Positions 9,558 through 30,863 are shown, counted from the stretch's first letter. The stretch is DNA of 64,000 bases from Candidatus Woesearchaeota archaeon (GCA_964428965.1 CAYSAF010000001.1:11242-75241); one strand, 5' to 3'. Translations and numbers: made by a program. Notes: a model not told the origin generated them from the sequence alone.

Positions 9558-9595
9558 GTTAAAAAATATATTTCAGAGTTTTATTAATCTTTCCA

Positions 9596-11038
9596 TTACC
9601 AACTCAACATGCCGTGAGTCTTCTTGTAAACATCATACAAGGTGTAAACATTATCGCTAACAACCTTAGCTGCCTCAGCTTCCTGCTCCCTTTCATAGTA
9701 AGACAACCTCTTCTTATTACCCGTGCCCCACTTCAGGCCACCAAACAAATCACCGAAGCCCTTAACAATTGAGGTGAAAGGCATCAGTATGTCCTTGGCA
9801 TAAATCTTATTCTTTTCCTCCTTCTTCATCCCAACGTCTTCAGGCTTAACCTCACCAGACTCAACTAGGTACTTCTTCAACTCATCACCGAGAGCATCCA
9901 GGGAAGAGTCAACAGACCTCAAAACCTCCAAATCTTCCAAGTCCTTAGCCTTCTTATGATCATTAATCTCTTTAGGGGTTAAGACATAACCCTGAATAGT
10001 AATCTCAATCCTGCCTGCGTGAACGGCAGCGCGCTGGAACTCCTTCTGAAAAGCCATCTCAGGAAGAGTAACAAACTTGAACTTGACAATGATGCATGGA
10101 ATCTTCTCGGTAAACACACGCTCAACCATACCCCTATTAGTCAACATCTCATAGGTGTTTTTCTTAGCAAACAACTCAAGCTCGATAAGATTTGTCTCAA
10201 AAGCAGTCACAAGCTCAGCAGCACTGCTCTGGGAAAGCTCAAGCTTCTGAATGTTCTTCAAAAAAGGCTTAACCCACTTGGCGTACATCCTAATAGTCTG
10301 GTAATGCTGATTCAAGGCCTTAAGCCTGAAGTTCTTACCCCACTTCAACTCCTTATACGTTTTTTCCTTCCAAACATAATATTCGACTAACTTACTCTTC
10401 AAGATACTCCTAACCCGAGCGTTAATGCCCTCATTCTTCAAAGCGTTAACCTCCTTATCAACACCAGCACTTCCACTCTTAGGATTGATCTTAAAGAATA
10501 GGTCAGGGATTATAACAAAACCAAGCTTACGAGCCAAACCAAAAATAGAAGTAGGGCTTTCTGAGCCGCCCTCAACGAGGTTAGTCCAGATATTCTTCAG
10601 AGTTATCTCAGAAGAATCATCACCCCTGTAGCTTCTCTCGTAATACTCCAAACGCTCATCCATAATCCTAAGCTCCCTAACCATCTGAAAAACGCTACGG
10701 GTCATGTTGCCAATAGTAGCCAGGTGCTGAGAGATACGCTCCTGCTGCTTCTGCTTACGCTCCTCAGCAACGCCGAAGAAGGTAGACATCTCAGTGGCAG
10801 AAAAAACATCAGAAGTCTTCTCAACCTCATAGCTTAGCGTGTTAGGGTGCTGCAAAAAATTCAGAACCCAGAAATAAGAAGGCTCTGCAGAAGCACCCAT
10901 CTGCTCGATGATGAGCTTCTGAGTCCTAACAGGCTTAACGTCAACACCCAAAACCTTAGGCTTCGGAGGAGCCTGCTCCCCGGGACCGAAAAGACTCTCA
11001 GTAGCGCTCTTGAAAAACCTAACCTTAGCCATAAACAC
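9596..11038 (-). CDS. Hypothetical protein (480 aa), no recognisable domain
   Basis: Long ORF with ordinary codon usage and no shadow-ORF competition. Transcribed divergently from the paralog triplet. Confidence 0.5.
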   Translation of the reverse strand: MFMAKVRFFKSATESLFGPGEQAPPKPKVLGVDVKPVRTQKLIIEQMGASAEPSYFWVLNFLQHPNTLSYEVEKTSDVFSATEMSTFFGVAEERKQKQQERISQHLATIGNMTRSVFQMVRELRIMDERLEYYERSYRGDDSSEITLKNIWTNLVEGGSESPTSIFGLARKLGFVIIPDLFFKINPKSGSAGVDKEVNALKNEGINARVRSILKSKLVEYYVWKEKTYKELKWGKNFRLKALNQHYQTIRMYAKWVKPFLKNIQKLELSQSSAAELVTAFETNLIELELFAKKNTYEMLTNRGMVERVFTEKIPCIIVKFKFVTLPEMAFQKEFQRAAVHAGRIEITIQGYVLTPKEINDHKKAKDLEDLEVLRSVDSSLDALGDELKKYLVESGEVKPEDVGMKKEEKNKIYAKDILMPFTSIVKGFGDLFGGLKWGTGNKKRLSYYEREQEAEAAKVVSDNVYTLYDVYKKTHGMLSW

Positions 11039-11137
11039 CTCTTTTACTCCAGATTGAATATATTGGTAATTTATAAATTTTATTAATCCGCAGGAGCATA
11101 GAAAAACTTATTAACCATAATAAGAATTTATAAGAAT

Positions 11138-11638
11138 ATGTTTCCGGGGAAAAAAACGAGTCTCAAGATATTCTCAAACAGGGTTATACAAGACGGACCC
11201 TTCGACCTGAACATGATATACAAAAACCTAAAAAGCTGGTTCCAAGACCACAACTATGTTTACACAGAAGCAGAGAACACAACAAACTTCAAACCCAAAG
11301 GAGCGGAAATAAAACTAAAAATGAAGGGAGAAAGACTTGTAACAGACTACTACAAATTCACAATAAACATAAACTTCCTAATACTAGAAACAGAAAAAGT
11401 AAAAATAAAAGACAAGGTGCTCGACTACGGAAAGCTGGAAGCGAGAGAAGAGGTCTTTATGGAACTTGATTATAGAAAAAAGTTTGAAAAGAGCAGACTC
11501 GCAAAATTCATAAAGTTCCTGTACAACAACTACATAATAAAAAAAGAGATAGAAACCGAATATGCAGGCAAGGCATACAGTGAAGGAATGAGCGCATTCA
11601 AGACTTTGAAGGAAACGGTAGGACTATACACAGAATAA
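11138..11638 (+). CDS. Uncharacterised ~19 kDa protein, paralog 1 of 3
   Basis: 166 aa. Shares a colinear pattern with the next two ORFs: FDL..IYK.L..WF..H.Y; DYYKF.I; E.DY...EK...KFI...Y. Confidence 0.5.
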   Translation: MFPGKKTSLKIFSNRVIQDGPFDLNMIYKNLKSWFQDHNYVYTEAENTTNFKPKGAEIKLKMKGERLVTDYYKFTININFLILETEKVKIKDKVLDYGKLEAREEVFMELDYRKKFEKSRLAKFIKFLYNNYIIKKEIETEYAGKAYSEGMSAFKTLKETVGLYTE

Positions 11639-11652
11639 AAAAGAGGGGATAA

Positions 11653-12159
11653 ATGGCTGATGTAATAGAAAAGATATGGGTAACACCCCCCATGCCCGGA
11701 GGGATGAAAGTAAGACACGTAGGTTACCTAGACCTGGGAACGTTCTACACTTGGCTGGAGAGATGGTTTGAATTTGAGGAATTTTTTGTACCGGACCTTG
11801 AAAGATTCTACGAAGAAAAAACAGAACCAGCAGGGAAAAAAATGGACATAAGGTGGGTGGGAAAAAAGAAGAAAAACCCCTACTACACCTATGTGATTGA
11901 GATAGTATTCCTACTCATAAACGTGAACAAAGTAGAGGTGCAGATGGGAGAAAAAAAGATAAAAATAGAAAAAGGAGACTTCGAATTCAGGTTGGGAGCT
12001 TATCTGGAAAAGGGAATGAAAGGGGCCGGAGTGCTCAGAAACCTCTACGAAAAAGTGATAGCCAAAAAGAAAGTAGACATATACACAAGGGAATGCTACG
12101 ACAAGGTATACAAGCTCCAAGAGGATATGAAAGCATACTTCAACCAATACGTACAATAA
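11653..12159 (+). CDS. Uncharacterised ~19 kDa protein, paralog 2 of 3
   Basis: 168 aa. Same conserved pattern (LDLGTFYTWLERWFEFEEF...YTYVIEI...). Starts 15 nt after paralog 1. Confidence 0.5.
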   Translation: MADVIEKIWVTPPMPGGMKVRHVGYLDLGTFYTWLERWFEFEEFFVPDLERFYEEKTEPAGKKMDIRWVGKKKKNPYYTYVIEIVFLLINVNKVEVQMGEKKIKIEKGDFEFRLGAYLEKGMKGAGVLRNLYEKVIAKKKVDIYTRECYDKVYKLQEDMKAYFNQYVQ

Positions 12160-12196
12160 AAAGGTTTAAATAAAAACAAAACAAATAAAAAATAAA

Positions 12197-12697
12197 ATGT
12201 CAGAAATAGACTATGTGCATACACCATCAAAGCCGTTAAAGGTTGCGCAAGAAGCAACCTTCGACATGCAGCAACTCTACAAGCTGGGAAGAGCTTGGTT
12301 TGACAAACACGGCTATGACTTCTATGAAAAGGAGTACATATCGTCGCAGAAAGAAGAGGCGAAAAACGCATCCATAAAATGGGAAGCAGACAAAAAAGTG
12401 GACGATTACATAAAATTCCACATAGAAGCAAGGGTCAAATTCAAAAACCTGAGAGAGGTGCAAGGCAAAAAAAGGATGATGAACACAGGAGAGGTGAGCT
12501 TCAGCATAGAGGCATACATAGAAATGGACTACGAAGCGAGGTGGGAAAAGGGATTCATGAGCAAATTCATAAGGGGAGTTTATGACACTTTCGTAATAAG
12601 GGGCAAGATAGAAAAAGACAAACAGAGGCTTGACAGGGAAGCAAAAGAATTCTTCCACGAAATAAGAACGTTCCTCAAATGCAACCCCTGCAAATGA
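12197..12697 (+). CDS. Uncharacterised ~19 kDa protein, paralog 3 of 3
   Basis: 166 aa. FDMQQLYKLGRAWFDKHGYDFYEKE...DYIKFHIEA...EMDYEARWEKGFMSKFIRGVYDTFVI is colinear with paralogs 1 and 2. Confidence 0.5.
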   Translation: MSEIDYVHTPSKPLKVAQEATFDMQQLYKLGRAWFDKHGYDFYEKEYISSQKEEAKNASIKWEADKKVDDYIKFHIEARVKFKNLREVQGKKRMMNTGEVSFSIEAYIEMDYEARWEKGFMSKFIRGVYDTFVIRGKIEKDKQRLDREAKEFFHEIRTFLKCNPCK

Positions 12698-12756
12698 TTA
12701 TTCTCGAGTAGTGGCAAAACGAAAGGTATTTAAAACTGAATTTCTAAAAAAAAGGC

Positions 12757-14127
12757 ATGAATTACAGGGGTATACTAACATATGGGATAGCGGGGCTGAT
12801 ATTCTTAGGAAGCTATACAATGCCTATTATAGCGAGAGCTCAAACAGCCACCAGCTCCGTAAAACAAGAATTCTTTGACACGATAGTTGATTATGCAAGA
12901 AAGCAGGGACTAAATCTTAATAAAATAGAAGAAAAAAACATAGAAATAAAAAGCGAAGTCAAGAGAAAAGATAAAGAAGGAAACTATGAAAAAGTGATGG
13001 GGCTTTTTGACAGACAAACAAGAAAGATACAGATAGAAAGATCAAGCCTCGAAAACATAGCAACGATAGGCATACACGAGATTACACACGATAAACTGTA
13101 TGATGTTGAAGAATCTGAATTGTGGTTTAAAAAAATACACTACAAAGTACAAAAACAAGACGACATATACATAGCGACAGTGAAAGAAGAGCAAGCGAGT
13201 TGGACAATCCCAAAAGAACTACAAAAACTAACTATAAAAGATGAAGGAATGAATAATGAAACCGTAATATACGACGCCAAAGGAAACATGCTAGTAAAAC
13301 TTCAGATGAATAGAATAGAAAGTAAAGATGACTTGACAGTGAGGGAGAAAGGAGCAAACTACGAAATAAACGGCTTACAAGGGGAATGGCACTACGAAAA
13401 ATATGACAATAAGGAATATGAGAATATAAGACTTAGTTACAAACCTTCTGAGGAGATAATGGAATTCAACAATGAAGTAATAGCTAGGATATACGAGCAA
13501 GTATTCGGTGGTTACTACCATGGAAAAAACGTATACAAAATAACTACAGAAAAAGACAAAAGTATACTAGGAAAATCCCTTGCTTACCTAACCTCAACTT
13601 ACAGCCTAACACCTGAACAACAAAAAATATCAGAAAATTCCGAGGGGGCATACATCAGGCTAAACGAACACGGACTATTGAACCTCTTAGAAAAAATACT
13701 CCCAATAGGAGGAAAAACATTCAAAGAGGCTATGGAAGACGTCCAAGATGAACGATTCTCAAAGAGTTTGGCACTTGCATCTGTAATACTAACAGAACAG
13801 GACTTTATAACATTGCTCGATATGTACAACACAAAAGGCAAAGAAGGTGTAATACAACTGCTAAGCGAACAAATCCGAGAGCTTAAAAAAACAAAAAAGG
13901 TAGGAGCTCTTAATGAATATGAAATAATAAAAGAATACCTAAAAAGATTCAACTTGAACGATGAAGAAGCAGAATACGTCATGAGATACACAAAACATGC
14001 AAACTTTACAGACATGATAAAAAGTAAAGAAAAAATAAAGCACATAGAAAGGATAAAACAACAAAACCTAGAAAAATTGATGGAACCATTCAGACCACAA
14101 GAAAAAGAAATAACAAAAGGTTTATAA
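12757..14127 (+). CDS. Secreted protein with an HExxH motif (putative zinc metallopeptidase-like)
   Basis: 456 aa. N-terminal signal/TM segment (GILTYGIAGLIFLGSYTMPIIARAQTA). Contains IGIHEITHDKL (HExxH). Confidence 0.45.
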   Translation: MNYRGILTYGIAGLIFLGSYTMPIIARAQTATSSVKQEFFDTIVDYARKQGLNLNKIEEKNIEIKSEVKRKDKEGNYEKVMGLFDRQTRKIQIERSSLENIATIGIHEITHDKLYDVEESELWFKKIHYKVQKQDDIYIATVKEEQASWTIPKELQKLTIKDEGMNNETVIYDAKGNMLVKLQMNRIESKDDLTVREKGANYEINGLQGEWHYEKYDNKEYENIRLSYKPSEEIMEFNNEVIARIYEQVFGGYYHGKNVYKITTEKDKSILGKSLAYLTSTYSLTPEQQKISENSEGAYIRLNEHGLLNLLEKILPIGGKTFKEAMEDVQDERFSKSLALASVILTEQDFITLLDMYNTKGKEGVIQLLSEQIRELKKTKKVGALNEYEIIKEYLKRFNLNDEEAEYVMRYTKHANFTDMIKSKEKIKHIERIKQQNLEKLMEPFRPQEKEITKGL

Positions 14128-14150
14128 TAAATGACAACAAAAAAAATTAG

Positions 14151-14573
14151 ATGAGACAAAAAAAATTGATTGCAGCTGCAGCGATAACAATAATCATGGA
14201 CCAAATAACAAAGATAGTTCTAACAAACAAAAAATACCCAGTACTTGGGTTTGATATAATAAGCTACACAGAAAACACAGGGGCAGCTTTCAGCATACTA
14301 CCCGGGCAGAGGTTGCTGTTAATAGCAGTAGCCTCAGCAGCACTGATAGTACTCCTCTATTATGCAACTAAGATAAGAGAAAAAGAGAAAAAACTACAAA
14401 TCCCAACAGGGATGCTAATAGGGGGCATAGCAGGAAACCTAATCGATAGGATACTACTAGGCTATGTTAGGGACTTCATAAACCTAGAGATATGGCCTAC
14501 GTTCAACATAGCAGACACAGCCATGTTCATAGCAATAATACTCCTGATAATACATCTCTTTAAGAAAAAATAA
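14151..14573 (+). CDS. lspA: Lipoprotein signal peptidase (signal peptidase II)
   Basis: 140 aa with 4 TM helices. Carries the SPase II boxes: YTENTGAAFSILPG (NxGAAF), IGGIAGNLIDRILLGYVRDFI (GNLxDR...VxDF), WPTFNIADTAMFIAII (FNxAD). Confidence 0.8.
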   Translation: MRQKKLIAAAAITIIMDQITKIVLTNKKYPVLGFDIISYTENTGAAFSILPGQRLLLIAVASAALIVLLYYATKIREKEKKLQIPTGMLIGGIAGNLIDRILLGYVRDFINLEIWPTFNIADTAMFIAIILLIIHLFKKK

Positions 14574-14574
14574 G

Positions 14575-14727
14575 ATGGACAAAAAAATACTAAAAATTTA
14601 TAAAAGGCTGTTGAAAAAGTTCGGCAAGCAGGGATGGTGGCCGGTAACAGACGAGAAAAACGCTCAATTCGAAATAGAGATAGGAGCGATACTGACACAA
14701 TATATTAGTTTTACTTATTATTTTTAG
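14575..14727 (+). pseudogene. N-terminal fragment (first ~42 aa) of an endonuclease-III-related HhH-GPD gene (COG2231-like), interrupted by the integrated element
   Basis: MDKKILKIYKRLLKKFGKQGWWPVTDEKNAQFEIEIGAILTQ matches the N-terminus of the family. Compare the intact copy at 14724..15476 (LFEMYGSQGWWP...IGAVLAQN). The frame then runs into unrelated YISFTYYF* and stops. The missing NTSWKN...C-terminus lies at 28076..28618. Confidence 0.7.
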
Positions 14728-15476
14728 GATTCTAATATTTTGGCTTTCCTAATGTCAACCCTTCCTTTCTTACCTCCTGCTTTCACATATTTTTTATATA
14801 AAGGACAATTATGATATTCCCCTTTCTTTGCATAATACCTCTTGGCATGCTCTACTATAAGGGCATGATATTCCTGATAGGTTGTAAGGTCAGACTTTAA
14901 GTTGCCCTCAAACAAGGCTTTTATCTCATCATACTTTGCATCTTCCTTAATAAAGCCCAGATTTGCAAATATCCTCTTTGTGTAGGCATCCACAACAAAA
15001 GTAGGGGTCTTAAAGGCATATAACAGCATAGAATCCGCAGTTTCGGGTCCAATACCCCATATATTCAATAATTCTTCCCTTTTGGGTATATAGGTAAGGG
15101 TTAGGAAAAACCTTGTAAACTCCTTTAATTTCCTTGCCTTCTGGTTGAAGTATCCAGCTGGCTTTATGGCTTCTTTAAGCTTATTGTTGTCTAATCCCAT
15201 GAGGGCTTCTGGGTTGAGGGCTTTTAATCCCTTAAGGTTGTTTAATGCCTTTTCTGCGTTCACCCATCCTACGTTTTGAGCGAGCACAGCACCAATGCAG
15301 ACCTCATAGATTTGGTTTGTTGTCTTAGGAAATTCATAATTTCCAGGATGATAACCACCATAATTCTTACTACCTTTCCTATAAGTCACTTCCCCCAAGT
15401 CCAGCAGAGGCCACCAACCCTGTGAACCATACATTTCAAATAAATCATCGTATACATCTTTAATGGTTTTAATCAT
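14724..15476 (-). CDS. Endonuclease-III-related HhH-GPD protein (COG2231-like), intact element-borne copy
   Basis: 250 aa. GSQGWWP, IGAVLAQNVGWVNAEKALNNLK, AGYFNQKARKLKEF, LLNIWGIGPETADSMLLYAF, VVDAYTKRIF and EYHALIVEHAK are colinear with the split host gene, with roughly 50% identity. Confidence 0.7.
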   Translation of the reverse strand: MIKTIKDVYDDLFEMYGSQGWWPLLDLGEVTYRKGSKNYGGYHPGNYEFPKTTNQIYEVCIGAVLAQNVGWVNAEKALNNLKGLKALNPEALMGLDNNKLKEAIKPAGYFNQKARKLKEFTRFFLTLTYIPKREELLNIWGIGPETADSMLLYAFKTPTFVVDAYTKRIFANLGFIKEDAKYDEIKALFEGNLKSDLTTYQEYHALIVEHAKRYYAKKGEYHNCPLYKKYVKAGGKKGRVDIRKAKILES

Positions 15477-16402
15477 ATTATTACCCCTCTAAATTTATTG
15501 AATCGTTTATAGCATTTAAAAATGTTAAATAAGTTTGGAAGACTTTCTTTTGATATTTCTTGATAAGTCCTTCCGGTAATTCCTTGAATAAACTTATCAC
15601 TTACATCAAAACCTATGTCCCATAATTCACCATTTTTTACCTCTTCAATAAACTCTTTGATGATGGTATTTAATGTAAAGGATTTGTCATTTGACATAAC
15701 TCTCCAGAAAAAATAAGTGTTTAAAATTCTTTTAATATCCCTTACTTCGTCCTCTGAAAATAGCCATCTTCCTTTCAATAAGGCATCATTCTCTTTTTTG
15801 AAAGAATTTAACTTTGAACTTAACTCTTTATATTTTTGTATAGATAAGTGCATCCCTTTAATTTTCTCTTCTATGTCTTTTATCTCTGCTAAATTATGTG
15901 GTTTATCAATAAAATCTTCTTTTAACATATCATATGTTTTCTTTGGCTTACTCTGTTCTTTAGCTTTTTCTAGTATTAACTTATAGGCTTTGATTCTTTT
16001 TTCAATAAGCTTAATTCTTTGACTAAAAAAAGAACACATTAAATCTATTTTTTGGTTGATTTCCTTTACTTGTTCCTTAAAGATTAATTCAATCCTTTCA
16101 TATAGTTTATCATAATTAAGGTCAAATTTATATCCTTCACCAGACCTCCTATTAATTTTGTCCTTGTTGCTTACCAGGACTATTCTCTCCTTTTCTAAGA
16201 GATTCCTATATTTATTGTATGTTCCTTGTGAGATAAACCCTTGTTGTTCATCTTTAAGTTCTATTAAGGATGGTTTTTTATTACTATTCTTAACAATTAA
16301 TTCAGTAGTATCACATCCTACCCCAATTGTGGCAACAATCATTGCTACACTTGGAAGTTCCCAAAGGGATTTATTTTTAATTATACTATTTTTGCTATTC
16401 AT
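15473..16402 (-). CDS. Hypothetical protein (element). Coiled-coil rich.
   Basis: 309 aa. 4-nt overlap with the downstream endoIII-like gene suggests an operon. K/E-rich helical middle region. Confidence 0.45.
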   Translation of the reverse strand: MNSKNSIIKNKSLWELPSVAMIVATIGVGCDTTELIVKNSNKKPSLIELKDEQQGFISQGTYNKYRNLLEKERIVLVSNKDKINRRSGEGYKFDLNYDKLYERIELIFKEQVKEINQKIDLMCSFFSQRIKLIEKRIKAYKLILEKAKEQSKPKKTYDMLKEDFIDKPHNLAEIKDIEEKIKGMHLSIQKYKELSSKLNSFKKENDALLKGRWLFSEDEVRDIKRILNTYFFWRVMSNDKSFTLNTIIKEFIEEVKNGELWDIGFDVSDKFIQGITGRTYQEISKESLPNLFNIFKCYKRFNKFRGVII

Positions 16403-16472
16403 ATAATTAAATAATTATATATCCTATATATACTTTTTGGTTTTATGTCTCATTAACCGATTTCTAAGATAG

Positions 16473-16497
16473 TTTAGTTATATGTTTTTTAACTAAA
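16473..16497. promoter_or_regulatory. Inverted repeat (TTTAGTTA-n9-TAACTAAA) in the divergent promoter region, candidate RHH operator
   Basis: Perfect 8-bp arms. Lies about 35 nt upstream of the RHH ORF, between divergent gene sets. Confidence 0.3.
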
Positions 16498-16528
16498 ATA
16501 TTATTAATACCCTAATAATTATATTATT

Positions 16529-16681
16529 ATGGAAAAATTATTCACAATGAAGATGGACGATGAGCTTTACACTAAGCTTCGGAAGATTGCCTTTAAAAGA
16601 AATGTTTCAATGGGGTTATTCATAAGGAACGCCCTAAACCAAGAAATTAGGAGATTAAATCAAAATGAGCAAAATGTTTGA
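16529..16681 (+). CDS. Ribbon-helix-helix (CopG/Arc/MetJ-like) DNA-binding protein
   Basis: 50 aa (below the ORF-track cutoff). MEKLFTMKMDDELYTKLRKIAFKRNVSMGLFIRNALNQEIRRL is a classic beta-strand + two-helix RHH pattern. Confidence 0.5.
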   Translation: MEKLFTMKMDDELYTKLRKIAFKRNVSMGLFIRNALNQEIRRLNQNEQNV

Positions 16682-16875
16682 TTTGTTAAATCCATTGACA
16701 AAATATCTTGTCAATCGAGCAATGCAGGATAACCTAATTGCAAATGCAGAAGAATTATCAAAAGTGTCAAAAATGTTTAAGGATAATAAAAGGGAGGATG
16801 GTTTAGCTGTTACAAGCTCTCAGAGTTAAGCTGTTAGGAAGTTTCTAAAATTATAGGCCGTTAGGAGGTAGGCAG

Positions 16876-17067
16876 ATGGAGGATTGCTTTAAATTTGAGG
16901 ATTTTATTTGTTACCTGAATGATGATAATTCTAAGGTAACCGCATATGTAGATATTATTTACACGAATTCTTCGGTAATTAAATTTGTCACTAAAGAAGG
17001 CAATTTGATTACATTACCTTGGCATAGAGTTCTTAAAGTAAAGCAGAGGGGTGGTAATGATGAGTGA
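16876..17067 (+). CDS. Small hypothetical protein (element)
   Basis: 63 aa. Overlaps the primase-helicase start by 17 nt. Confidence 0.3.
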   Translation: MEDCFKFEDFICYLNDDNSKVTAYVDIIYTNSSVIKFVTKEGNLITLPWHRVLKVKQRGGNDE

Positions 17068-18313
17068 GTTGACACCCTTTGATGTAGCAAAACAAATAAT
17101 GGAAGAGAATATTTTTCTAACATTAGAAAAAACTGAAGAGATTTACATTTATAAAAATGGGGTTTATTGCAAACAAGGTGATACTTCGATTAAAAAAAGA
17201 GTGCAGGAAATATGGGGGGATAAAGCAACTACACATAAAGTAAATGAGGTAATTAATCATATCAAAAGAATGACCCTAAGAGATGTTGAGGATGACGCTG
17301 TACCCATTAGTTTGATTTGTGTGGAGAATGGTATCTTGAATATATATACGCGTGAATTAAAACCACATAGCCCAGATGTTATATTTTTCAATAAACTGCC
17401 TATAAAGTATAATCCTGATGCTAAATATACAAAGTTCAAATGTTTTATAGAAGACTTGGTATCAAAAAATGATGCTGAAACATTACAGGAGTTTATAGGA
17501 TATTGTTTACGAAGAGACACAGCTTACCAGAAAGCGTTAATGTTGTATGGTAAGGGGAACAATGGTAAATCCACACTCACTAAGATTTTGGAAGGGTTTT
17601 TGGGAAAACACAATTATACATCAATACCCCTTCAGCAATTAGAAGAAGATAAATTTATAGTAGCAAATCTACATGAAAAAATGGTTAATATATCCGCAGA
17701 TTTGCCAAATAGGATATTATATGAGACTTCAATAACAAAGGCACTAATTACAGGTGATAGTATTACTGCCCAACGTAAATTTGGTCATCCATTTAGTTTC
17801 GTCCCATATACCAAACTTATTTTTAGTTGTAATAGACTTCCAGAGACTAAAGATTTGAGTAGCGGTTGGTTTAGAAGATGGATTATTATAAGTTTTCATA
17901 ATACTTTCAGAGAAAATGCTCAATCAAATAAAGAATTAGAATTTATGAATGAGGAAGATATGTCAAGCGTATTGAATTGGGCATTAGATGGCTTAGACCG
18001 TTTAAGACAAACTGATGGTTTTCTAATAAGTGAGCGTGAAACAAGAGAAATATGGATGAAACATAGTGATAATGTGTCTGCGTTTATTCAGGATAATATA
18101 GTGAAGGATGTAAATTCACACCTAATAAAAGAGGAACTTTATGATAAGTATACCTCTTTTTGTGAAAAACAAGGAAGTGTTCCTTTAGAGAGTAATGCCT
18201 TCCATAGGAAATTGAAAGAGAAGATGGATGTTATTGATTATCAACCATCTGTAGATGGTAAGCAAGTACATGCATGGAAAGGTATTAATTTTAAAGATAC
18301 TCCACCATGGTAG
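17051..18313 (+). CDS. D5/P4-type primase C-terminal SF3 helicase-domain replication protein
   Basis: 420 aa. Walker A LMLYGKGNNGKST. Walker B/motif C region KMVNISADLP...LITGDSITAQRKFGHPFSFVPYTKLIFSCNRLP, and WFRRWIIISF. This is typical of phage/plasmid primase P4-family (COG3378-like) proteins. Confidence 0.7.
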   Translation: MVMMSELTPFDVAKQIMEENIFLTLEKTEEIYIYKNGVYCKQGDTSIKKRVQEIWGDKATTHKVNEVINHIKRMTLRDVEDDAVPISLICVENGILNIYTRELKPHSPDVIFFNKLPIKYNPDAKYTKFKCFIEDLVSKNDAETLQEFIGYCLRRDTAYQKALMLYGKGNNGKSTLTKILEGFLGKHNYTSIPLQQLEEDKFIVANLHEKMVNISADLPNRILYETSITKALITGDSITAQRKFGHPFSFVPYTKLIFSCNRLPETKDLSSGWFRRWIIISFHNTFRENAQSNKELEFMNEEDMSSVLNWALDGLDRLRQTDGFLISERETREIWMKHSDNVSAFIQDNIVKDVNSHLIKEELYDKYTSFCEKQGSVPLESNAFHRKLKEKMDVIDYQPSVDGKQVHAWKGINFKDTPPW

Positions 18314-18319
18314 CTCAAA

Positions 18320-18346
18320 TAATTAGGAATTAGGATAATTAGGATT
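18320..18346. repeat. Three tandem copies of (A)ATTAGGA immediately downstream of the replication gene, candidate iterons
   Basis: aattaggaattaggataattagga within an AT-rich intergenic spacer. Confidence 0.3.
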
Positions 18347-18388
18347 TTATTATATTTAAGTTAAATAAAATATATTATAAATTAAATT

Positions 18389-18988
18389 ATGGAAAAACCC
18401 AATTATCCTCATTGTAGAATGAAAATGGAAACAAACCATGACGCAAACCAAGAAAAAACATGCAAGAAATCTCTTGAATATAAAAAAAATGTAGGGAGGT
18501 TCTCAAGGTTGACCCAGGAAGAGTTAAGCCGAATAGCAAGAAAAGGTGGTCAAGCAAGGTCAGAACGAAAGAGGCTGTCATCTCAATTAAATCCCATAAA
18601 ATCGGGCAACGCAACATCGGTATTCAATATTGCAAAGTGTGATGACTGCTTAATTAAGGTTGATTGTGATTTCTATAGGCAAGGCTCAGCCTGCCAAGTT
18701 GAGATTAATATCAGAAGGAACATAATCAGGCAATTCAAGGCATTCCAGGGCGATAATCCAAAAGACATGCTTATAGAGATTATGAGGGTTTATAAAAAGC
18801 TTGAGCAGATGGTAGAAGAAGACAAATCTTTCTATAAATATACACAATTATTCCATATGCTTCTGCATCTTTATAGGATGAAGTTTTGTGAGGGGCATTT
18901 TGATAAAAAGATTCTGGAAGATGGGCTTAATATTTCTTTAGAGGTCAAGCGGATTATGAAAGAGCTACGGGGGAGTGCCAAAAAATAA
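18389..18988 (+). CDS. Hypothetical protein (element)
   Basis: 199 aa. Basic N-terminal region (ARKGGQARSERKR). No clear domain. Confidence 0.4.
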   Translation: MEKPNYPHCRMKMETNHDANQEKTCKKSLEYKKNVGRFSRLTQEELSRIARKGGQARSERKRLSSQLNPIKSGNATSVFNIAKCDDCLIKVDCDFYRQGSACQVEINIRRNIIRQFKAFQGDNPKDMLIEIMRVYKKLEQMVEEDKSFYKYTQLFHMLLHLYRMKFCEGHFDKKILEDGLNISLEVKRIMKELRGSAKK

Positions 18989-19050
18989 TGAACCGTAGGT
19001 AAATAATCCTGCTATATGGGTGCTTCAAAAAAAATGTAATTTAAGACACC

Positions 19051-19332
19051 TTAATCCTTTTTAATTTCTGACAATATTTTGTTTGCCTGCTGTAAGACTT
19101 TCTTGCCTTCTGAAGTTAATTTATAAAACTTATAGTTCCTGTCGTCTGGATTGACACATTTGATTAACTTTTTTCTCAGCAACTCATTCAAAACCCTGCT
19201 TACATGGGACCTGTACATTCCAGTTTGCTTTTCAATCTGGGCAGAGATTTTCTGACCTTCCTGTAAAACCCGAAGTATACCTAAACGATTTTTTGCTCTT
19301 AATACATAGGAGACTACATTCTGTTTACCCAT
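19051..19332 (-). CDS. Winged-helix transcriptional regulator (ArsR/MarR-like)
   Basis: 93 aa. RLGILRVLQEGQKISAQIEKQTGMYRSHVSRVLNELLRKKLI matches a recognition-helix + wing pattern. Confidence 0.6.
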   Translation of the reverse strand: MGKQNVVSYVLRAKNRLGILRVLQEGQKISAQIEKQTGMYRSHVSRVLNELLRKKLIKCVNPDDRNYKFYKLTSEGKKVLQQANKILSEIKKD

Positions 19333-19422
19333 GAGTTACCATACACATACCATAATTAAAACAAAGTATTACCAAATGAGTTACCAAAAATATTAAATAC
19401 GACAACATATTATATAGATATA

Positions 19423-19833
19423 ATGGAGAAGAAAAAGGCGGTTTGGATAGGAGTATTAGGATTCTTAACCTTTGTATTCCTTCTGATAGTTATATTTGGA
19501 GATAGTCCGGAAGAAGCGGCAGAAAAACAAAGACTTCTCACAGAGCAAGCACAAAGAGAAGATGCTATAAGAGCTGAACAAAAAGCCAACCAATGCCCAA
19601 AGCAAGGCATATTACAATCTGATTGGGATTATTGTGTTGAGTTGTGTGTGTTAGGAAAGAGTGATGCTTTGATTAACGAAGAACAATGTGAAAAAATCTG
19701 TGATACAACTGAGTATTACCAAGGTAGTGAGGGTTTGCAGAAAAGAATTATGAATTATAAATGTAAAAAGTGTGGAGAATGCACAGAGGAACAATTAAAA
19801 GAAATGAATGTAAGTAATGAGGTAGAAGAATGA
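19423..19833 (+). CDS. Cys-rich membrane-anchored or secreted protein (element)
   Basis: 136 aa. N-terminal TM (VWIGVLGFLTFVFLLIVIF). 10 Cys in the C-terminal half. Confidence 0.4.
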   Translation: MEKKKAVWIGVLGFLTFVFLLIVIFGDSPEEAAEKQRLLTEQAQREDAIRAEQKANQCPKQGILQSDWDYCVELCVLGKSDALINEEQCEKICDTTEYYQGSEGLQKRIMNYKCKKCGECTEEQLKEMNVSNEVEE

Positions 19834-20432
19834 ATATACGATTTATCATAGGGATAATTATAATTCTAATCCTAATTGACATAGTAACCGCTATGGTTTG
19901 TAAAACTGATTATGAAGATAAAGATTATCTCAAATGTCTTGAATGGAGAAAAGAAAGGATTAAAGAATGTGAAGATGACCCAGACTGTGCAGGTATTTGT
20001 GACGAGTTAGAAGATGGAAATTATAGTTCATGCCTAGTAATATCTGAATGTAATCCGCCCCAAAAATGTCAAAGTGAGTTTGGAGAAGGAGAGCCTCCGG
20101 TTGAACAACAACCTATATGTAGTACATGCCCTCCGGCTTGTAAGCTAAAAGACCCAAATGATACCTGTGGCGAATGCATATGTCCAGAAAATCATGGTTT
20201 TTGCACCCATGAAGTAGGAGTGAGGAAAATTATCAATAACACATCTATCTATTGCATTGATGGATTATGGCTACAACAAAAAGAAGATAACCAAACCTGC
20301 CAGAATAGCTTTGAATGTATTAGCAATTTTTGCAGTAAAGACTTTTGCTATGATATTTCTAAACAAGTTGAAGAAAATAAATCTCTATTGAACAGCATTC
20401 TTGATTGGATAAAAAAATTCTTTAGGATATGA
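19830..20432 (+). CDS. Cys-rich secreted protein (element)
   Basis: 200 aa. N-terminal hydrophobic segment, about 30 Cys. 4-nt overlap with the previous ORF. Confidence 0.45.
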   Translation: MNIRFIIGIIIILILIDIVTAMVCKTDYEDKDYLKCLEWRKERIKECEDDPDCAGICDELEDGNYSSCLVISECNPPQKCQSEFGEGEPPVEQQPICSTCPPACKLKDPNDTCGECICPENHGFCTHEVGVRKIINNTSIYCIDGLWLQQKEDNQTCQNSFECISNFCSKDFCYDISKQVEENKSLLNSILDWIKKFFRI

Positions 20433-20567
20433 TATCTAAATACCAAATTAAATCATCCCGATTTTTCGGAATCATTTCCCATTTAAAACCGGTAATTCTT
20501 ATTAAAAGGGTAATATAATTTCATTGAATTACTATAACATTTATACCCAGAGGGGAGCCAATCAGGG

Positions 20568-21161: not shown

Positions 21162-21355
21162 AAAGCTAAGGATTTCTCCTTAGCATCATGTTCTATCAGA
21201 GCGTCAGCTCCTTAAATTTAAAAAGAGTGATAAAGAAATAGACTTTTTTAACAAACACTACTTATTTAACAAAGCTGTTTTAAAAACGACAAGTTAAAAA
21301 ACATAAAGTAACCTCTTTTTATGGAAGATGGGGGAAGTAGGTTATAGGAGGGTAT

Positions 21356-21988: not shown

Positions 21989-22282
21989 ATGGGTATAAGA
22001 GAAGATGCTGGAAAGATATTATTGTTTGTATATAAAAAGTATATAAATGAAGAATATTATTTAAATACTGAAAGTATAATAAAAGGGACTAAATTACCAG
22101 CTAAAAGAATAAATAGTGCTATCACCTATCTAAAAGATATTGGTGCTATCCAAATTACATTATTCTTTGGGAAGACAGATGGTGTTTATAATTTCGAGAT
22201 TGATGGTTTAACGCCTAGAGGGATTGATATTGTAGAGAACAAAAAGAAGTTTAAGAGTATTTTTGGAATACGAGAAGGGTAA
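21989..22282 (+). CDS. Hypothetical protein (element)
   Basis: 97 aa. Its start abuts the previous stop. Confidence 0.35.
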   Translation: MGIREDAGKILLFVYKKYINEEYYLNTESIIKGTKLPAKRINSAITYLKDIGAIQITLFFGKTDGVYNFEIDGLTPRGIDIVENKKKFKSIFGIREG

Positions 22283-22428
22283 GGGGGTTTAAAAATACAA
22301 AAACCATGTCTATTGTATACTGTTTGTATTTGGTAATTCATACATCTAATCAAAACTCACTAAGCTTCCCCTGTCCTTTAGCCTTCTTATGATTCCGCCA
22401 AGTCATCTAAGACTTACGGAGAGATAAA

Positions 22429-26216: not shown

Positions 26217-28013
26217 TCAATCCGGGGCTGACAAATCCATAAGTTCTTTTAGCTTCGCTATGAGATGGGGGTCTGATTTTAACACTTGGTACATTGCTTC
26301 CTTTATATCCCCACTATAGGGGGCTGTACTAATGTTCTTGTTGAATAGCTCCCTTTGTAGCTCATCTTCTTTCTGCTTAATCTTTGTTAATGATACTGCT
26401 GTCTTTAGCGTTAGTGGATAGCCACATTTAAGGCAGAATTTTGCTTCTGAAGGGTTTCCATAATTACATAGCGTGTTTGGGCATATACCAATCTCCAACA
26501 AACAATCTTTTTCTTCCTTTTCTTTTGGCTTTAACCCATAGTTTTCTAAAATCTTGTTGGCTACATCCTTCTCGTCTAAGTGCACGTAGACCGAAGCCAT
26601 ATTTGATTCTTCACCCCACCCAGCATGGATTTTAAGCTCTGATTCTGATAGAATCCTTGCCATTCTTGTAAGGTTTGTATGCCTGAACAGGTGCGCATGT
26701 ATGTGCCTTGTTACTCCTGCCTTCCTTGCGGCCCTTTGTAGAATCTTGTTAATGCCTACCGGTGTAAGCCTCTGACCATACCTGCTTTCTTTTGTTGAGA
26801 CAAAAAGAGGGGCTTCTGGGTCTTCCTTAATAGGATGGTTTAGTAGCCATAGCCTCAGATGAGGCACTGAATAGAAAAGCTGGTTTGTCCTTTCGCCGGT
26901 CTTGCCTCTTAGGACAATAGTTGCTATGGAATGGCTGTATTCAGCCCCTTCAAGCGAAATCTCGTTTATCCTGAGGTCTTTAATATTGGTATTTATGATT
27001 TCCCCTACCCTTGCAGAGCAGTCAGCTATAAGCCCAATTAAAGCCTTATCCCTTGTCTCACCACAGCAGTCTATCATTGCCTTAATCTCCTTGTCAGAGA
27101 GAATCTGCTTTCTAAGCTTATCGTGGCTTTTCTTTCTTTTTTGGTATAGCCATGACACAACAGGTGGGTATGTTCTTGGCTGTTCTTCCCCAAAGAATCC
27201 ATATACAAACCTGTAGAAGTCAAGCAGGTGTGCCTTATATGAGATATTTATCTTGACCTTTTCATCTGCTTCTCTCTTTGAGCTGATAGACCTTGCTACC
27301 TCACTTAAGAAGCCTTGGATATCCTCCATTTTGGCTTCTTTGAATGTTTTGTTTATCTCTTTCAAGTACAGCCCGAGCCTCTTAAGGAAATAGAGTTTGC
27401 TTACAAATCCTGTGTAAGATTCAACCTTACCGCTAGCAATCTTATAGTCTAGGTAGTCATTAAGCGTTTTAAGGTTATCCCTATCCAGAATCAGATGAGG
27501 GTATTTAGACCTTAGCTCCTCTTTGGATAGACTCCTATCTGCTTTCCTGTTAGTTGTTATAATCTCATTATTAAGTAATGCCATAACCCTTTGTTTACAA
27601 AGGAATTCCCTTGATTTCTCAGGCTTTTTTATCACCTTAGGCTTAGGATATGCCAATTCGGAATTAACGCTTAAATCCGTGTATTTCATTATCCAGCGGT
27701 AGAATAAGTTAACCCTATACCTATAGCCCATTACCGATGACTTCTTTACCTTCAAGACCCGGTTGTTTGTAATTGTTTCATTGCTTTCCCTCTTAAAGTT
27801 GAGGTAGTGTTCTAAATCCTCAGGGGCGGCATCCTCATATGGATTCTTTATAAACAGCCCGAATTCCCTTATGGTATATGCCATGCCCAAGATTTGGGCA
27901 TCTGTCTTAAAGACCTTCAGGTGCTTTATCCACATTGCTATTACCTCTTCTTGATGCTCGGTTAGCCTTTCATCCCTGAGCAACAAGCCCAATTTTTGGC
28001 TGTCTGTTCTCAT
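26217..28013 (-). CDS. Tyrosine recombinase (site-specific integrase) with a zinc ribbon in its C-terminal region
   Basis: 598 aa. Catalytic-domain residues in order: ADCSARVGEI (R), LRGKTGERT (K), HAHLFRHTNLTRMA (HxxR), HAGWGE (W), ASVYVHLDEKD (Y). A CPNTLCNYGNPSEAKFCLKCGYPL ribbon follows the Tyr region. The gene is intact and adjacent to the right junction. Confidence 0.8.
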   Translation of the reverse strand: MRTDSQKLGLLLRDERLTEHQEEVIAMWIKHLKVFKTDAQILGMAYTIREFGLFIKNPYEDAAPEDLEHYLNFKRESNETITNNRVLKVKKSSVMGYRYRVNLFYRWIMKYTDLSVNSELAYPKPKVIKKPEKSREFLCKQRVMALLNNEIITTNRKADRSLSKEELRSKYPHLILDRDNLKTLNDYLDYKIASGKVESYTGFVSKLYFLKRLGLYLKEINKTFKEAKMEDIQGFLSEVARSISSKREADEKVKINISYKAHLLDFYRFVYGFFGEEQPRTYPPVVSWLYQKRKKSHDKLRKQILSDKEIKAMIDCCGETRDKALIGLIADCSARVGEIINTNIKDLRINEISLEGAEYSHSIATIVLRGKTGERTNQLFYSVPHLRLWLLNHPIKEDPEAPLFVSTKESRYGQRLTPVGINKILQRAARKAGVTRHIHAHLFRHTNLTRMARILSESELKIHAGWGEESNMASVYVHLDEKDVANKILENYGLKPKEKEEKDCLLEIGICPNTLCNYGNPSEAKFCLKCGYPLTLKTAVSLTKIKQKEDELQRELFNKNISTAPYSGDIKEAMYQVLKSDPHLIAKLKELMDLSAPD

Positions 28014-28075
28014 TTTCCTCCTTTTAGGAAGGGATTGGCATTATTTTAAGCCTGACTGCCTAACCATATAAGTAA

Positions 28076-28618
28076 TATATTGGAATCTTAAAAATAATAA
28101 TAAAAACTCAAATATTAACACAAAACACCTCATGGAAGAACGTGGAAAAAGCAATAAAAAACCTGAGAGAAAAAAACATTCTAACAAAACAAGCAATACT
28201 AACTACAGATACAAAAAAAATAGCACAACTCATAAGAAGTTCAGGATACCACAACCAAAAAGCGAGAAAGCTGAAAGAATTGGCCAAGTTCGATGGAGAA
28301 ATAAACAGGGAGAACCTACTAAGCATCTGGGGGATTGGAAAAGAAACAGCAGACTCCATACTCCTATACGCTTATGACAAACCACACTTCGTAATAGACA
28401 ACTACACCAAAAGAATATTTAACAGGATAGGTTATAAGGAAAAATCATACAAAGACCTGCAAAACCTTTTTGTGAGCAATTTGCCAAAAGACATAGGGGT
28501 ATACAAGGAGTATCACGCATTAATCGTGGAATTGGCTAAGAACAACTGTAAGAAGAAGCCAGAATGTGAAGGATGCGCCTTGAAAAGCATGTGCAGATTC
28601 AGAGACGATGTATCATAA
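28076..28618 (+). pseudogene. C-terminal fragment (~180 aa) of the endonuclease-III-related HhH-GPD gene split by the element
   Basis: The in-frame translation upstream of the annotated GTG reads ...ILTQNTSWKNVEKAIKNL, continuing exactly where the N-fragment stops. It contains GYHNQKARKLKEL, LSIWGIGKETADSILLYAY, VIDNYTKRIF and EYHALIVELAK, colinear with the intact family member. No proper start codon or RBS. Confidence 0.7.
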
Positions 28619-29083
28619 CAACTGTACATTTGCAGAAGCCCTTATCCTCCTGCTCTTAGGCACAAAATTCAGAAGTTTACCTTTAATATTTTTTCCAGAA
28701 CCAAAAAAATCTTTGTCAAACCTAACCAGGGTAACTGCAACATCAGCATCCCTCAAGTTTAAGTCATTACCTCTCACCCATTCGTTAACTTCACTTTTTG
28801 ATAAGTTAACAACATTTTTTTTAGCAAGAGGGCCTATAAGTTGAGAGCCCTCAATGCTCAATCTCACCTTACCGTGCTCTAACCTACCAAAATACAAGCC
28901 AAGTGAGTTTATCCTTAAATTATCTGTATCCAGATCAGCAAGTTTTCCGTCAATAAGGTACAACTTGTCATCCTTACCCAGGAGGAATATGCGATCAAGC
29001 TTTACCTCCTTTATAGAATACTGCTCTCTAAGCAGATTAATTATTTTCTTAACTTCTCTTTTATTGAGGACTTTTATTTTCAT
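28613..29083 (-). CDS. PUA-domain RNA-binding protein (NIP7-like)
   Basis: 156 aa. KIKVLNKREVKKIINLL...RIFLLGKDDKLYLI...GKVRLSIEGSQLIG...ADVAVTLVRFDKDFFGSGK resembles archaeal NIP7/UPF0113 proteins. Confidence 0.4.
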   Translation of the reverse strand: MKIKVLNKREVKKIINLLREQYSIKEVKLDRIFLLGKDDKLYLIDGKLADLDTDNLRINSLGLYFGRLEHGKVRLSIEGSQLIGPLAKKNVVNLSKSEVNEWVRGNDLNLRDADVAVTLVRFDKDFFGSGKNIKGKLLNFVPKSRRIRASANVQLL

Positions 29084-29228
29084 CGTTGATTCATTTTTTA
29101 AAATCTTTTACCTTTAATACCTTTACGCTACCTAAAAAAAGATTTCACTACCTACCAGCTAAGAGTCTATAAGTCTTTTTTGAAAAATAAACAAATATTT
29201 AAATAACAAAAACCAGATTTAGAAGAAT

Positions 29229-30863
29229 ATGGAAGAGTTAATATTCAAGTATGCTTTACAAAACGCGATAAAATTCAATGGAAAAGCAAATGTAGGGGCT
29301 GTAGTAGGCAAGATATTTGCAGAAAAACCAGACAGCAAAGGACCCGAGGTTGCAAGAAAGGTAGCAGAAATAGTAAAAAAAGTCAACTCGATGAGCCTGG
29401 AAGAGCAGAAGAAAAAACTAGAAGAAATCGCACCTGAGCTATTGGAGGAGAAGAAACAAAAAAAAGAAAAAGACCTGTTCGAATTTCTTGAGGTAAAGGG
29501 AAAGGTGGTAACGGCTTTCCCACCAGAACCGAGCAAGTACCCCCACATAGGGCATGCAAAATCATTGTTTTTGAATTATGAACTGACAAAGAAACACAAG
29601 GGAAAATTCATTCTACGCTTTGAAGACACAAACCCCAAGCTGGTAAAAATGGAGTTATACAAAGCGCATCTCGATGCTTATAAATGGCTTGCAGTAAAAC
29701 CAAACCTGATAGACTGTTCATCAAAACACATGAAGGAATTCTACAGACATGCAGAAAAACTAATCAAAGAAAGCAAGGCATACATGTGCAGTTGCGACAG
29801 CGAAAAGATAAGAAAGATGCGCTTCAAGGGAATAAGCTGCGAATGCAGAAACAAAAGCACAGAACAAAACATGGAAGAATGGAAAAATATGCCTAAGAAA
29901 AAAGAAGGAGAGACAAACCTAAGACTGAAAATAGACATGCAGCATGAAAACACAACCATGAGAGACCCGACAATAATGAGAATAATAAAAGAAAAACACG
30001 CAATGCACGGCAAGAAATACAGCGTATGGCCAACCTACGACTTCCAAACCTCGATAATGGACAGCGTAGAAGGAGTAACTTACAGACTTAGGAGTAAGGA
30101 ATTCGAGATGAGGAATGAGCTACAAAGATGGATACAGAAAAACCTAGGCTTCAAAGAGACAGAGATTTACGAATACGCAAGATTCAACATGGAAGGGGTT
30201 CCAAGTTCAGGAAGGATAATAAGGGAGATGATAGAAAAAAAAGAACTCACAGGATGGGACGACCCAAGCCTGACAACAATAGCAGCGCTAAAGAGACGTG
30301 GCTTTTTACCTGAAGCGATAAAAGAATTCGTGCTGTCAACAGGGATAACAAAAACAGAAGCAACACACACCTGGGAAGACCTTGAAGTATTCAATAGAAG
30401 GCTATTAGACAGAAAAGCAAACAGATACTTCTTCATAGAAAACCCAAAGCAGATAGAAATCAAAGATGCACCGAAAATGGATACAAAAATAGAATTACAC
30501 CCAGATGACAAGAAAAGAGGTTTCAGAAAGTTCAAAACAGGAAAAAAGTTTTATGTACAAGACAAAATAGAAAAGGGAAGAGTGTACAGACTTATGCACC
30601 TATTCAACTTCAAGGATGGAAAATTCCTCTCAAAAGAACATAACCCTTCATTGAATGCAACAATAATACACTGGCTGCCAGCAGAAAAGGGATTGGTAAA
30701 CGTGGAAATACTGATGCCAAACAGGGAAATAAAAAAGGGACTCGGAGAAAAAGAACTGAAAAAATTAAAAACAGGAGAAGTAGTACAATTCGAGAGGTTT
30801 GCTTTCTGCAGGCTTGACAAAAAAGAAGAAGGCAAAATGATTTTTTGGTTCACACACAAATAA
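29229..30863 (+). CDS. gltX: Glutamyl-tRNA synthetase, archaeal/eukaryotic type
   Basis: 544 aa. Class I HIGH motif (VTAFPPEPSKYPHIGHAKSLFLNYELTKKHKGKFILRFEDTNP). Length and architecture fit archaeal GluRS. Confidence 0.85.
   Translation: MEELIFKYALQNAIKFNGKANVGAVVGKIFAEKPDSKGPEVARKVAEIVKKVNSMSLEEQKKKLEEIAPELLEEKKQKKEKDLFEFLEVKGKVVTAFPPEPSKYPHIGHAKSLFLNYELTKKHKGKFILRFEDTNPKLVKMELYKAHLDAYKWLAVKPNLIDCSSKHMKEFYRHAEKLIKESKAYMCSCDSEKIRKMRFKGISCECRNKSTEQNMEEWKNMPKKKEGETNLRLKIDMQHENTTMRDPTIMRIIKEKHAMHGKKYSVWPTYDFQTSIMDSVEGVTYRLRSKEFEMRNELQRWIQKNLGFKETEIYEYARFNMEGVPSSGRIIREMIEKKELTGWDDPSLTTIAALKRRGFLPEAIKEFVLSTGITKTEATHTWEDLEVFNRRLLDRKANRYFFIENPKQIEIKDAPKMDTKIELHPDDKKRGFRKFKTGKKFYVQDKIEKGRVYRLMHLFNFKDGKFLSKEHNPSLNATIIHWLPAEKGLVNVEILMPNREIKKGLGEKELKKLKTGEVVQFERFAFCRLDKKEEGKMIFWFTHK

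Follow-up and report, generated by a model that had tools for sequence, protein, structure and literature searches.

Why should a mobile element that breaks a DNA-repair gene of its host carry a complete relative of that gene at its own edge? The question is raised by a stretch of 64,000 nucleotides (nt), hereafter the window, from a Candidatus Woesearchaeota archaeon (GCA_964428965.1 CAYSAF010000001.1:11242-75241; positions are counted from its first letter). An insert of 13.4 kb (14701-28123), with a guanine-cytosine (GC) content of 0.334 vs about 0.40 on both flanks, divides a gene for a DNA glycosylase of the HhH-GPD family. Just inside the left junction lies a second gene of this family, on the strand opposite to the split gene (14724..15476, - strand). 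A reading of the window from its sequence alone (the sequence-only reading) had described this gene as intact and full length, which is confirmed: the open reading frame (ORF) encodes 250 amino acids (aa), begins with ATG, contains zero internal stop codons and lies between the att repeats of the element. The explanation to which we give somewhat better than even credence is that the element replaces the repair gene that it breaks, so that the insertion would be accompanied by functional complementation.

The 250-aa protein was characterized by ORF analysis, BLASTP, Pfam, AlphaFold2 (AF2) and Foldseek as an HhH-GPD glycosylase that resembles MagIII, has no iron-sulfur (Fe-S) cluster and carries a 25-aa insertion. 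It is colinear with the 206-aa protein obtained by rejoining the two parts of the host gene (95/226 identical residues, 42%; BLASTP E 9e-59), and all motif pairs that had been quoted for the two proteins were found: GWWP, AVLAQNVGW/AILTQNTSW, GYFNQKARKL/GYHNQKARKL, WGIGPETADS/WGIGKETADS and EYHALIVE. The sole large indel in this alignment is the insertion of about 25 aa in the element copy, which is beta-hairpin-like and placed after GWWP. Both proteins match the Pfam HhH-GPD family (PF00730) well above its gathering score of 26.2 bits, at 68.5 bits for the element protein, where the domain spans residues 61-191, and 66.0 bits for the host protein. The moderate identity noted earlier thus holds at 42%, but the view of the gene as simply a divergent copy of the host gene does not, because it belongs to a separate and widespread glycosylase subfamily in which the insertion is present and the Fe-S cluster is absent. 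Absence of the cluster is the rule in this subfamily, to which Methanococcus proteins 58% identical to the element copy belong. In the C-terminal tail, the element copy has a single Cys and the host copy a C-x5-C-x2-C-x5-C arrangement.

The host gene itself is split in two. Its N-terminal fragment (14575..14700, + strand), codons 1-42 of a native 206-aa gene of the MagIII-like, Fe-S type, and its C-terminal fragment (28124..28618, + strand), codons 43-206 with the 4-Cys cluster, rejoin in frame into one 206-aa ORF. The frame of the N-fragment reads MDKK...GAILTQ up to position 14700, enters the element sequence and, 8 codons into it, meets a stop, so that this junction does not restore the target ORF. 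The frame of the C-fragment begins with NTSWKNVEKA... and has no ATG, GTG or TTG start upstream of a GTG at 28142. The integration point corresponds to codons 39-42 (I-L-T-Q) of the host gene, inside the conserved GAILTQN motif. It is marked by a 12-nt imperfect direct repeat, whose attL copy is ATAcTgACACAA (14689..14700, + strand; core ACACAA at 14695-14700) and whose attR copy is ATAtTaACACAA (28112..28123, + strand; core at 28118-28123). As these 12 nt are repeated, every join from 14690/28114 to 14700/28124 yields the identical 206-aa protein.

The core is directly flanked by terminal inverted repeats. The left one (14701..14741), the P' arm of attP, has homologous arms 3' of the glycosylase genes in two other loci, L057 and L058; the right one (28074..28117), the P arm, lies beside the integrase promoter region and has a homologous arm in all family loci. 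The left end matches the reverse complement of 28074-28116 at 36/43 positions, and excision would therefore yield an attP of about 90 bp that is nearly palindromic around ACACAA. The 250-aa gene has its stop codon 23 nt inside the left junction, so that the last ~20 nt of the gene fall within the left inverted repeat. The glycosylase genes of L057 and L058 terminate at a TGA inside the conserved string TGACATTAGGAAA, ahead of the att arm. The window gene has lost this TGA, and its region 14724-14765 consists of 13 extra codons from the att arm (...RVDIRKAKILES). The earlier suggestion that the element-borne homolog may set the integration specificity finds no support in these observations, since only the last ~20 nt overlap the arm and the L057 and L058 genes stop before it.

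Whether the disrupted gene is the host's own was decided by comparison with syntenic loci. In the window, the target is directly preceded by a Peptidase_A8-like (signal peptidase II) gene (14151..14573, + strand) and followed by a PUA-domain gene (- strand) and a Glx-tRNA synthetase (GlxRS) gene (+ strand; 28613..30863 for the two). In L053, an intact gene for a 203-aa protein (P0244), 70.5% identical to the product of the split gene, directly follows Peptidase_A8, and SLT, PUA and GlxRS genes lie downstream; the PUA and GlxRS products are 75% and 82% identical to those of the window. In L055, an intact gene for a 207-aa protein (P0245, 69% identical) occupies the same place directly after Peptidase_A8. 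The flank proteins of these two loci are 56-82% identical to their counterparts in the window, and the Peptidase_A8 neighbour, which precedes an intact HhH-GPD gene in L049, L053 and L055, is 56-63% identical. As only the 206-type gene is present at L053 and L055, these loci are, by synteny, empty sites for the insertion, and the resident gene in the lineage of the window is the 206-type gene that is now split. The uninterrupted orthologs at the syntenic site therefore establish the split gene as native, as the sequence-only reading had assumed.

The chromosomal slot beside Peptidase_A8 is polymorphic among relatives, which have either a 206-type or a 250-type glycosylase there (L049:5350-6075; L051:10001-10708; L053:1177-1788; L055:9645-10268). 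In L049, Peptidase_A8 is directly followed by P0003, which shares 70% identity with the 250-aa gene and only 45% with the split gene, and the 250-type gene of L051 (P0026, 65%) is convergent with Peptidase_A8, as is the 250-aa gene in the window; the flanking proteins of L049 and L051 are 50-82% identical to those of the window. In L051, only the glycosylase is inverted at this slot, in the orientation that the element copy has in the window. Because the L049 and L051 genes are closer to the 250-aa gene (65-70% identity) than to the split gene (45-47%), we considered that the 250-aa gene might be native and the split fragments foreign. The 206-type empty sites in L053 and L055, together with the element-end module of L057 and L058 described below, led us to reject this. 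In a neighbour-joining tree of the glycosylases, calculated without support values, the split gene falls among the syntenic chromosomal orthologs, and the element copy with its counterparts in the L057 and L058 elements.

Two further, diverged elements, one in L057 and one in L001 and L058, share the layout of glycosylase, arm, core and reversed N-fragment in different host contexts. In L057, a homolog of orf309 (65% identical), the gene adjoining the 250-aa gene in the window, overlaps the glycosylase gene (P0004, 65%), which is followed by the arm, TTGCGT (the reversed core) and a reversed 206-type N-fragment. Genes for 50 and 54 aa lie beside this orf309 homolog (61-74%) and also occur at the end of L001. 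In L058, the glycosylase gene (P0025, 60%) is followed by the arm, TTGGGT and a reversed N-fragment, and the host neighbours differ (S8e). The first 26 nt of L058 are exactly the last 26 nt of L001, which comes from the same sample and contains a C-fragment, a 64%-identical integrase and homologs of the regulator and small genes of the window. Joined through this overlap, L001 and L058 make up a second, complete element, which is about 12.6 kb long and has the architecture of that in the window. The glycosylases of the three elements are 59-67% identical in amino acid sequence and have the same position, orientation and junction (TGACATTAGGAAA, then the arm). It had been proposed that other copies of the element be checked for the gene and for the target, and both are found: the L057 and L001+L058 elements carry the glycosylase at the same element end and have entered the same codon of an HhH-GPD gene. 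Hence, the 250-aa gene belongs to the element, because the att repeats enclose it, its 5' end shares 4 nt with the 3' end of orf309 (15473..16402, - strand), which places the two in the same operon, and the same module recurs in L057 and L058.

The element copy looks functional as far as its sequence and predicted fold can tell. Of the columns that do not vary among 20 homologs it keeps 40/40, the GIG-x-ETAD hairpin and Asp163 among them; inactivating catalytic substitutions, raised earlier as a possible objection, are thus absent, the catalytic Asp and the HhH motif being conserved. GIGPETAD (residues 141-148) and VVD163AYT align to GIGKESAD and VVDKYS of MagIII and to GVGRKTAN and VDTH of EndoIII. 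The position of the catalytic Lys of EndoIII is a Glu in both the element and the host copies, as in MagIII, for which reason both look like monofunctional glycosylases. The AF2 model of the 250-aa protein is confident (predicted local distance difference test, pLDDT, 88; predicted template modelling score, pTM, 0.86), with residues 234-250, and hence the tail beyond the lost TGA, disordered, and its best Foldseek matches are MagIII (1PU6/1PU7) and then EndoIII. The 3-methyladenine DNA glycosylase MagIII of H. pylori is also the best sequence match (E 9e-16). It resembles the element protein in having an HhH-GPD fold without the Fe-S cluster, the GIG-x-E-[ST]-AD hairpin, the Glu at the EndoIII Lys position and the catalytic Asp (VVDxY), but the identity is 26-28% and the element protein has the extra ~25-aa insertion. 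The MagIII equivalog model NF010494 gives 86.1 bits for the element copy and 102.4 bits for the host copy at a cut-off of 192, and the EndoIII model (Nth; TIGR01083/NF007978) gives 55 and 71.8 bits, respectively, at a cut-off of 211.7. On these profile scores the two proteins are MagIII-like and cannot be filed as MagIII. Comparisons among the element copies give nonsynonymous divergence (dN) of 0.22-0.34 with saturated synonymous divergence (dS >2), and these rates show purifying selection at the level of the coding sequence.

How other members of the family treat their target can be seen from the integrase. The window element encodes a tyrosine integrase of 598 aa with a C-terminal zinc ribbon (26217..28013, - strand), which matches Phage_integrase (PF00589) at 51.3 bits (cut-off 27.1) and also Zn_Ribbon_1. 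The att core is located ~100 nt upstream of its start, and the integrase ORF is whole in the integrated state. About 30 integrases are 45-69% identical to it, and R335, K371, H441, R444, H463 and Y476 occur without exception in 29 family members. An HhH-GPD fragment that starts or ends at the ILTQ codons lies beside the integrase gene in the window and in 16 fetched loci, in one of two configurations. In configuration A (5 places: the window, L056, L001, L003 and L022), a C-terminal HhH-GPD fragment begins at the ILTQ codons, and the integrase gene is oriented divergently from it. In configuration B (12 loci: L002, L052, L023, L024, L005, L006, L025, L029, L030, L031, L032 and L004), an N-fragment ending in ...ILTQ lies ~100 nt upstream of the integrase and is co-directional with it in 11 loci; the exception is L004, placed here from its far end alone, as its integrase-proximal junction is not preserved. 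Relative to the target, configuration B elements are thus oriented opposite to those of configuration A, and the integrase-proximal arm is homologous in both. With a near-palindromic attP, the orientation of insertion would hinge solely on the asymmetric overlap. When the integrases are placed in a neighbour-joining tree, those of configuration A fall into approximately one clade, nested within configuration B.

The far end of configuration B elements carries a conserved N-terminal gene fragment (...AILAQNTQWYPNVVRAIQQLK...), whose reading frame crosses the att arm (GNNKLITKGK) and continues in the host C-part, ILTQNT..., so that hybrid ORFs arise. Three of these are the ORFs of L004 (278 aa; L004:9893-10726), P0260 (269 aa) and P0305 (307 aa), in whose alignment an insertion of 54-83 aa is found exactly at the att site. 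The AF2 model of P0260 has both halves confident and residues 56-110 as a loop, and is compatible with a working hybrid. The family as a whole thus seems to compensate for its target gene, by two routes. In L005 (1467-1649), the integrase-adjacent N-fragment is of the element type N' (WWPIINNRTLLCEYH...) and not of the typical host type, which points to a further integration, tandem or serial, into the hybrid gene that an earlier element had left behind. Four fetched loci (L007, L008, L026 and L027; integrases 45-60% identical) have another upstream neighbour and no HhH-GPD fragment. The integrase-proximal arm is conserved in these four (L026:9900-10000 and L027:980-1080 in the latter two), and either this part of the family uses another target or the copies have been rearranged.

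We propose the following sequence of events. An integrative plasmid- or virus-like element of a DPANN/Woesearchaeota-like archaeon has entered the MagIII-like gene of its host, its tyrosine integrase recombining attP (two ~43-nt inverted arms around ACACAA) with codons 39-42. The outcome is configuration A, in which the host gene is split and not rebuilt, and a full-length glycosylase of the sister subfamily lies opposite the integrase end with its 3' end abutting the att arm. Co-transcribed with orf309, the 250-aa copy would supply the monofunctional glycosylase activity that the host has lost; its expression, its enzymatic activity and its equivalence to the host enzyme we infer from sequence. 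Since the sister elements with the hybrid genes L004, P0260 and P0305 rebuild their target, the function appears to be kept under selection across the family.

Several observations weigh against this explanation. Given the 42% identity, the difference in the Fe-S cluster and the 25-aa insertion, the substrates of the two enzymes may differ and the substitution may fail. The window gives a view of 64 kb of the host genome, and other glycosylases may make the loss irrelevant. Genes of the 250-type are also ordinary chromosomal genes (Methanococcus, 58%; L049; L051), and capture with subsequent hitch-hiking is possible. Furthermore, the element in L003 apparently has no glycosylase: host genes resume ~5 kb past its integrase, and a search of the far end for the inverted-repeat end and the N-fragment found neither, so that the element looks either truncated or devoid of the gene. 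The glycosylase is thus not obligatory for the family. The 10-kb flanks covered by the analysis end short of the far ends of the elements in L022, L056, L003, L002, L052, L005, L006, L030 and L031.

A different emphasis is given by the evidence for exchange between element and chromosomal copies. Within the element glycosylase, a mosaic tract of ~100 nt (15333..15428, - strand; codons 17-48) shares 88-94% of its nucleotides with the chromosomal L049 gene, vs about 48-83% elsewhere in the gene, and both gene ends resemble the L057 element copy most. This pattern indicates gene conversion between the element copy and a chromosomal 250-type gene, in either direction. The L049 protein P0003 was also considered as a chimera of N- and C-terminal parts joined at the att core; its identity to the element copy is even (N-part 76%, middle 73%), only the Fe-S tail differs and there is no breakpoint at the core, and the idea was rejected. 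One may go further and regard the elements as gene-replacement agents at a DNA-repair locus, which target the ILTQ codons of any MagIII-like gene and recombine with chromosomal copies, a view that we find possible but doubtful. Such elements would bring in either a whole paralog, as in configuration A, or, as in configuration B, a new 5' module, and over time glycosylase subtypes and orientations would be swapped at one chromosomal position. This would explain the 206-/250-type polymorphism beside Peptidase_A8, the inverted L051 gene and the near-identical tract in the window.

It is also conceivable, if unlikely, that the glycosylase was captured from an earlier host by aberrant excision or att recombination, in a manner resembling specialized transduction, and is passive cargo whose benefit is incidental. 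The gene does sit at the very edge beside att, where captured host DNA lands, L049 and L051 have chromosomal 250-type genes at this locus, and the tract shared with the L049 gene shows that element and chromosome have exchanged DNA. Passive cargo, however, would not be expected to persist where other cargo is highly variable, and this module is conserved in three elements at 59-67% identity, saturated dS and low dN, with copies that share position, orientation and junction and cluster in the tree.

A specificity swap, in which the element gains from inactivating the host glycosylase and brings a variant that spares or protects its own DNA, is an improbable alternative. It would account for the use of distinct subfamilies (Fe-S cluster vs none, the 25-aa insertion, 42% identity) and for the fact that configuration A leaves the host gene broken though sister elements can rebuild theirs. 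However, the configuration B relatives restore a host-type hybrid, which speaks against a general need to remove the host enzyme; both subtypes occur at the same chromosomal locus in relatives, which suggests that they are interchangeable; and no DNA-modification genes were recognized in the element by the Pfam and PHROG scans. Finally, it is very improbable that the 250-aa gene is a host gene, be it a tandem paralog or the true native one, and that the insert boundaries were misjudged: the syntenic L049 gene, the convergent L051 gene and a GC content of 0.385, which resembles that of the host, speak for it, but the gene lies between the att repeats, reaches into the terminal inverted repeat, overlaps orf309 in an arrangement conserved in L057, and has the same junction in L057 and L058 despite different host neighbours, whereas the empty sites hold the 206-type gene only, and the tandem host duplication entertained in the sequence-only reading is contradicted by the same facts.

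Complementation of a target gene by the integrating element has precedents, SXT in prfC and phage 21/e14 in icd being two. The best comparison is provided by the dusA-specific integrases, whose islands and prophages put element sequence in place of the 5' end of their target (Farrugia et al. 2015, PMC4482086). The likeness lies in a dedicated tyrosine-integrase family, a single conserved position in a housekeeping protein-coding gene and compensation of the damage by the element; the configuration B relatives L004, P0260 and P0305 replace the 5' end of their target in the same way. The window element differs in that it rebuilds the target at neither junction and supplies a complete, separately transcribed paralog on the opposite strand. 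The present elements also differ in that they reside in DPANN archaea, target a DNA-repair glycosylase and use an integrase family that inserts in both orientations. Measured against the dusA/prfC/icd type as a whole, a dedicated integrase family tied to one site or gene family is present here, and a full-length target at one junction is found in L004, P0260 and P0305 but not in the window. The description of the locus as an unusual form of target complementation therefore went too far, as replacement of a disrupted target is already known (dusA islands, PMC4482086). The novelty lies in the full-length paralog that stands in for the whole gene, in a single integrase family that inserts in both orientations and in the DPANN hosts. 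Literature searches returned no account of an insertion into a glycosylase or endonuclease-III-like gene, and none of this family of DPANN elements.

With regard to the integrase, archaeal XerA/pNOB8-type (non-suicidal) enzymes are similar in that the gene is intact after integration and the catalytic residues are R-K-H-R-H-Y. The best NCBIfam match is archaeal XerA at 76.6 bits, far under the cut-off of 220. The window integrase differs from this type in its size of ~600 aa, its long N-terminal region and its C-terminal zinc ribbon, and in a target that is a protein-coding gene and not a tRNA gene or dif. In the 'suicidal' integrases of the SSV type, attP is inside the integrase gene (PMC7253208), whereas in the window attP lies outside and the integrase is not split.

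The remaining genes of the element include orf309, which has no Pfam or PHROG match; two small genes of 50 and 54 aa, divergent from orf309 (16529..16829, + strand) and conserved in L057 and L001; and a D5-like primase/helicase that represents the replication module (17051..18313, + strand; Pfam DUF5906, D5_N and Pox_D5; PHROG DNA primase, E 2.5e-91). A winged-helix regulator (19051..19332, - strand; Pfam HVO_A0261_N) has homologs in L001, L004, L005, L006 and L026. There are also small genes of 50-63 aa without a family match, and several genes for Cys-rich or membrane proteins. A gene at 22951-24333 (- strand) encodes a secreted, Cys-rich protein of 460 aa with staphylococcal-nuclease and lamin-tail domains, and the ORFs adjoining it are small and encode Cys-rich or membrane proteins. 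The Pfam and PHROG scans recognized no virion genes in the element. Members of the family vary widely in their cargo and replication modules: L052 encodes a complete type I restriction-modification system (3589-10342), L056 a serine resolvase beside the integrase (5783-6358), L002 a prim-pol/AAA_25 protein (9982-11763) and L003 a 733-aa protein with a faint PolB-exonuclease match (11932-14133).

Where relatives of the integrase and of the flanking genes carry a name, they come from metagenome-assembled genomes of Woesearchaeota and Nanoarchaeota, and the host is accordingly taken to be a DPANN archaeon. A scan of genome contigs with the single integrase protein gave no match. In IMG/VR, a scan with the integrase alignment gave no match and one with the glycosylase only two 16-residue matches at chance level; hence, the element is not in that viral collection. 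A sigma-70 promoter and terminator scan of 14400-16700 stayed at chance level, the sigma-70 model being the wrong one for an archaeon. Upstream of the target, the host flank contains three tandem paralogs of ~166 aa (11138-12697, + strand; 25-31% mutually identical), which occur in the same order in L049, L051 and L055, where Pfam annotation assigned them to no family. Between the third of these and Peptidase_A8 lies a 456-aa gene with a GC content of 0.346 (12757-14127, + strand), which is missing at that position in L049, L051, L053 and L055 and is therefore a separate, lineage-specific insertion.

DPANN mobile elements have barely been described to date, and the elements presented here define a family by its ~600-aa zinc-ribbon tyrosine integrase, its near-palindromic attP and its target in a conserved glycosylase motif. 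As the set of attP, attB and integrase comes from archaea with very small genomes, it is a candidate tool for site-specific integration. Within the family, a broken gene is handled in two ways, by rebuilding of its 5' end, which is known from other systems, and by a whole substitute gene, as in the window. If the substitute works, the fitness of the host would be tied to the retention of the element unless excision is precise. Integration would then swap subtypes of a DNA-repair enzyme without loss of function, and would offer a route to the non-orthologous replacement of housekeeping genes.

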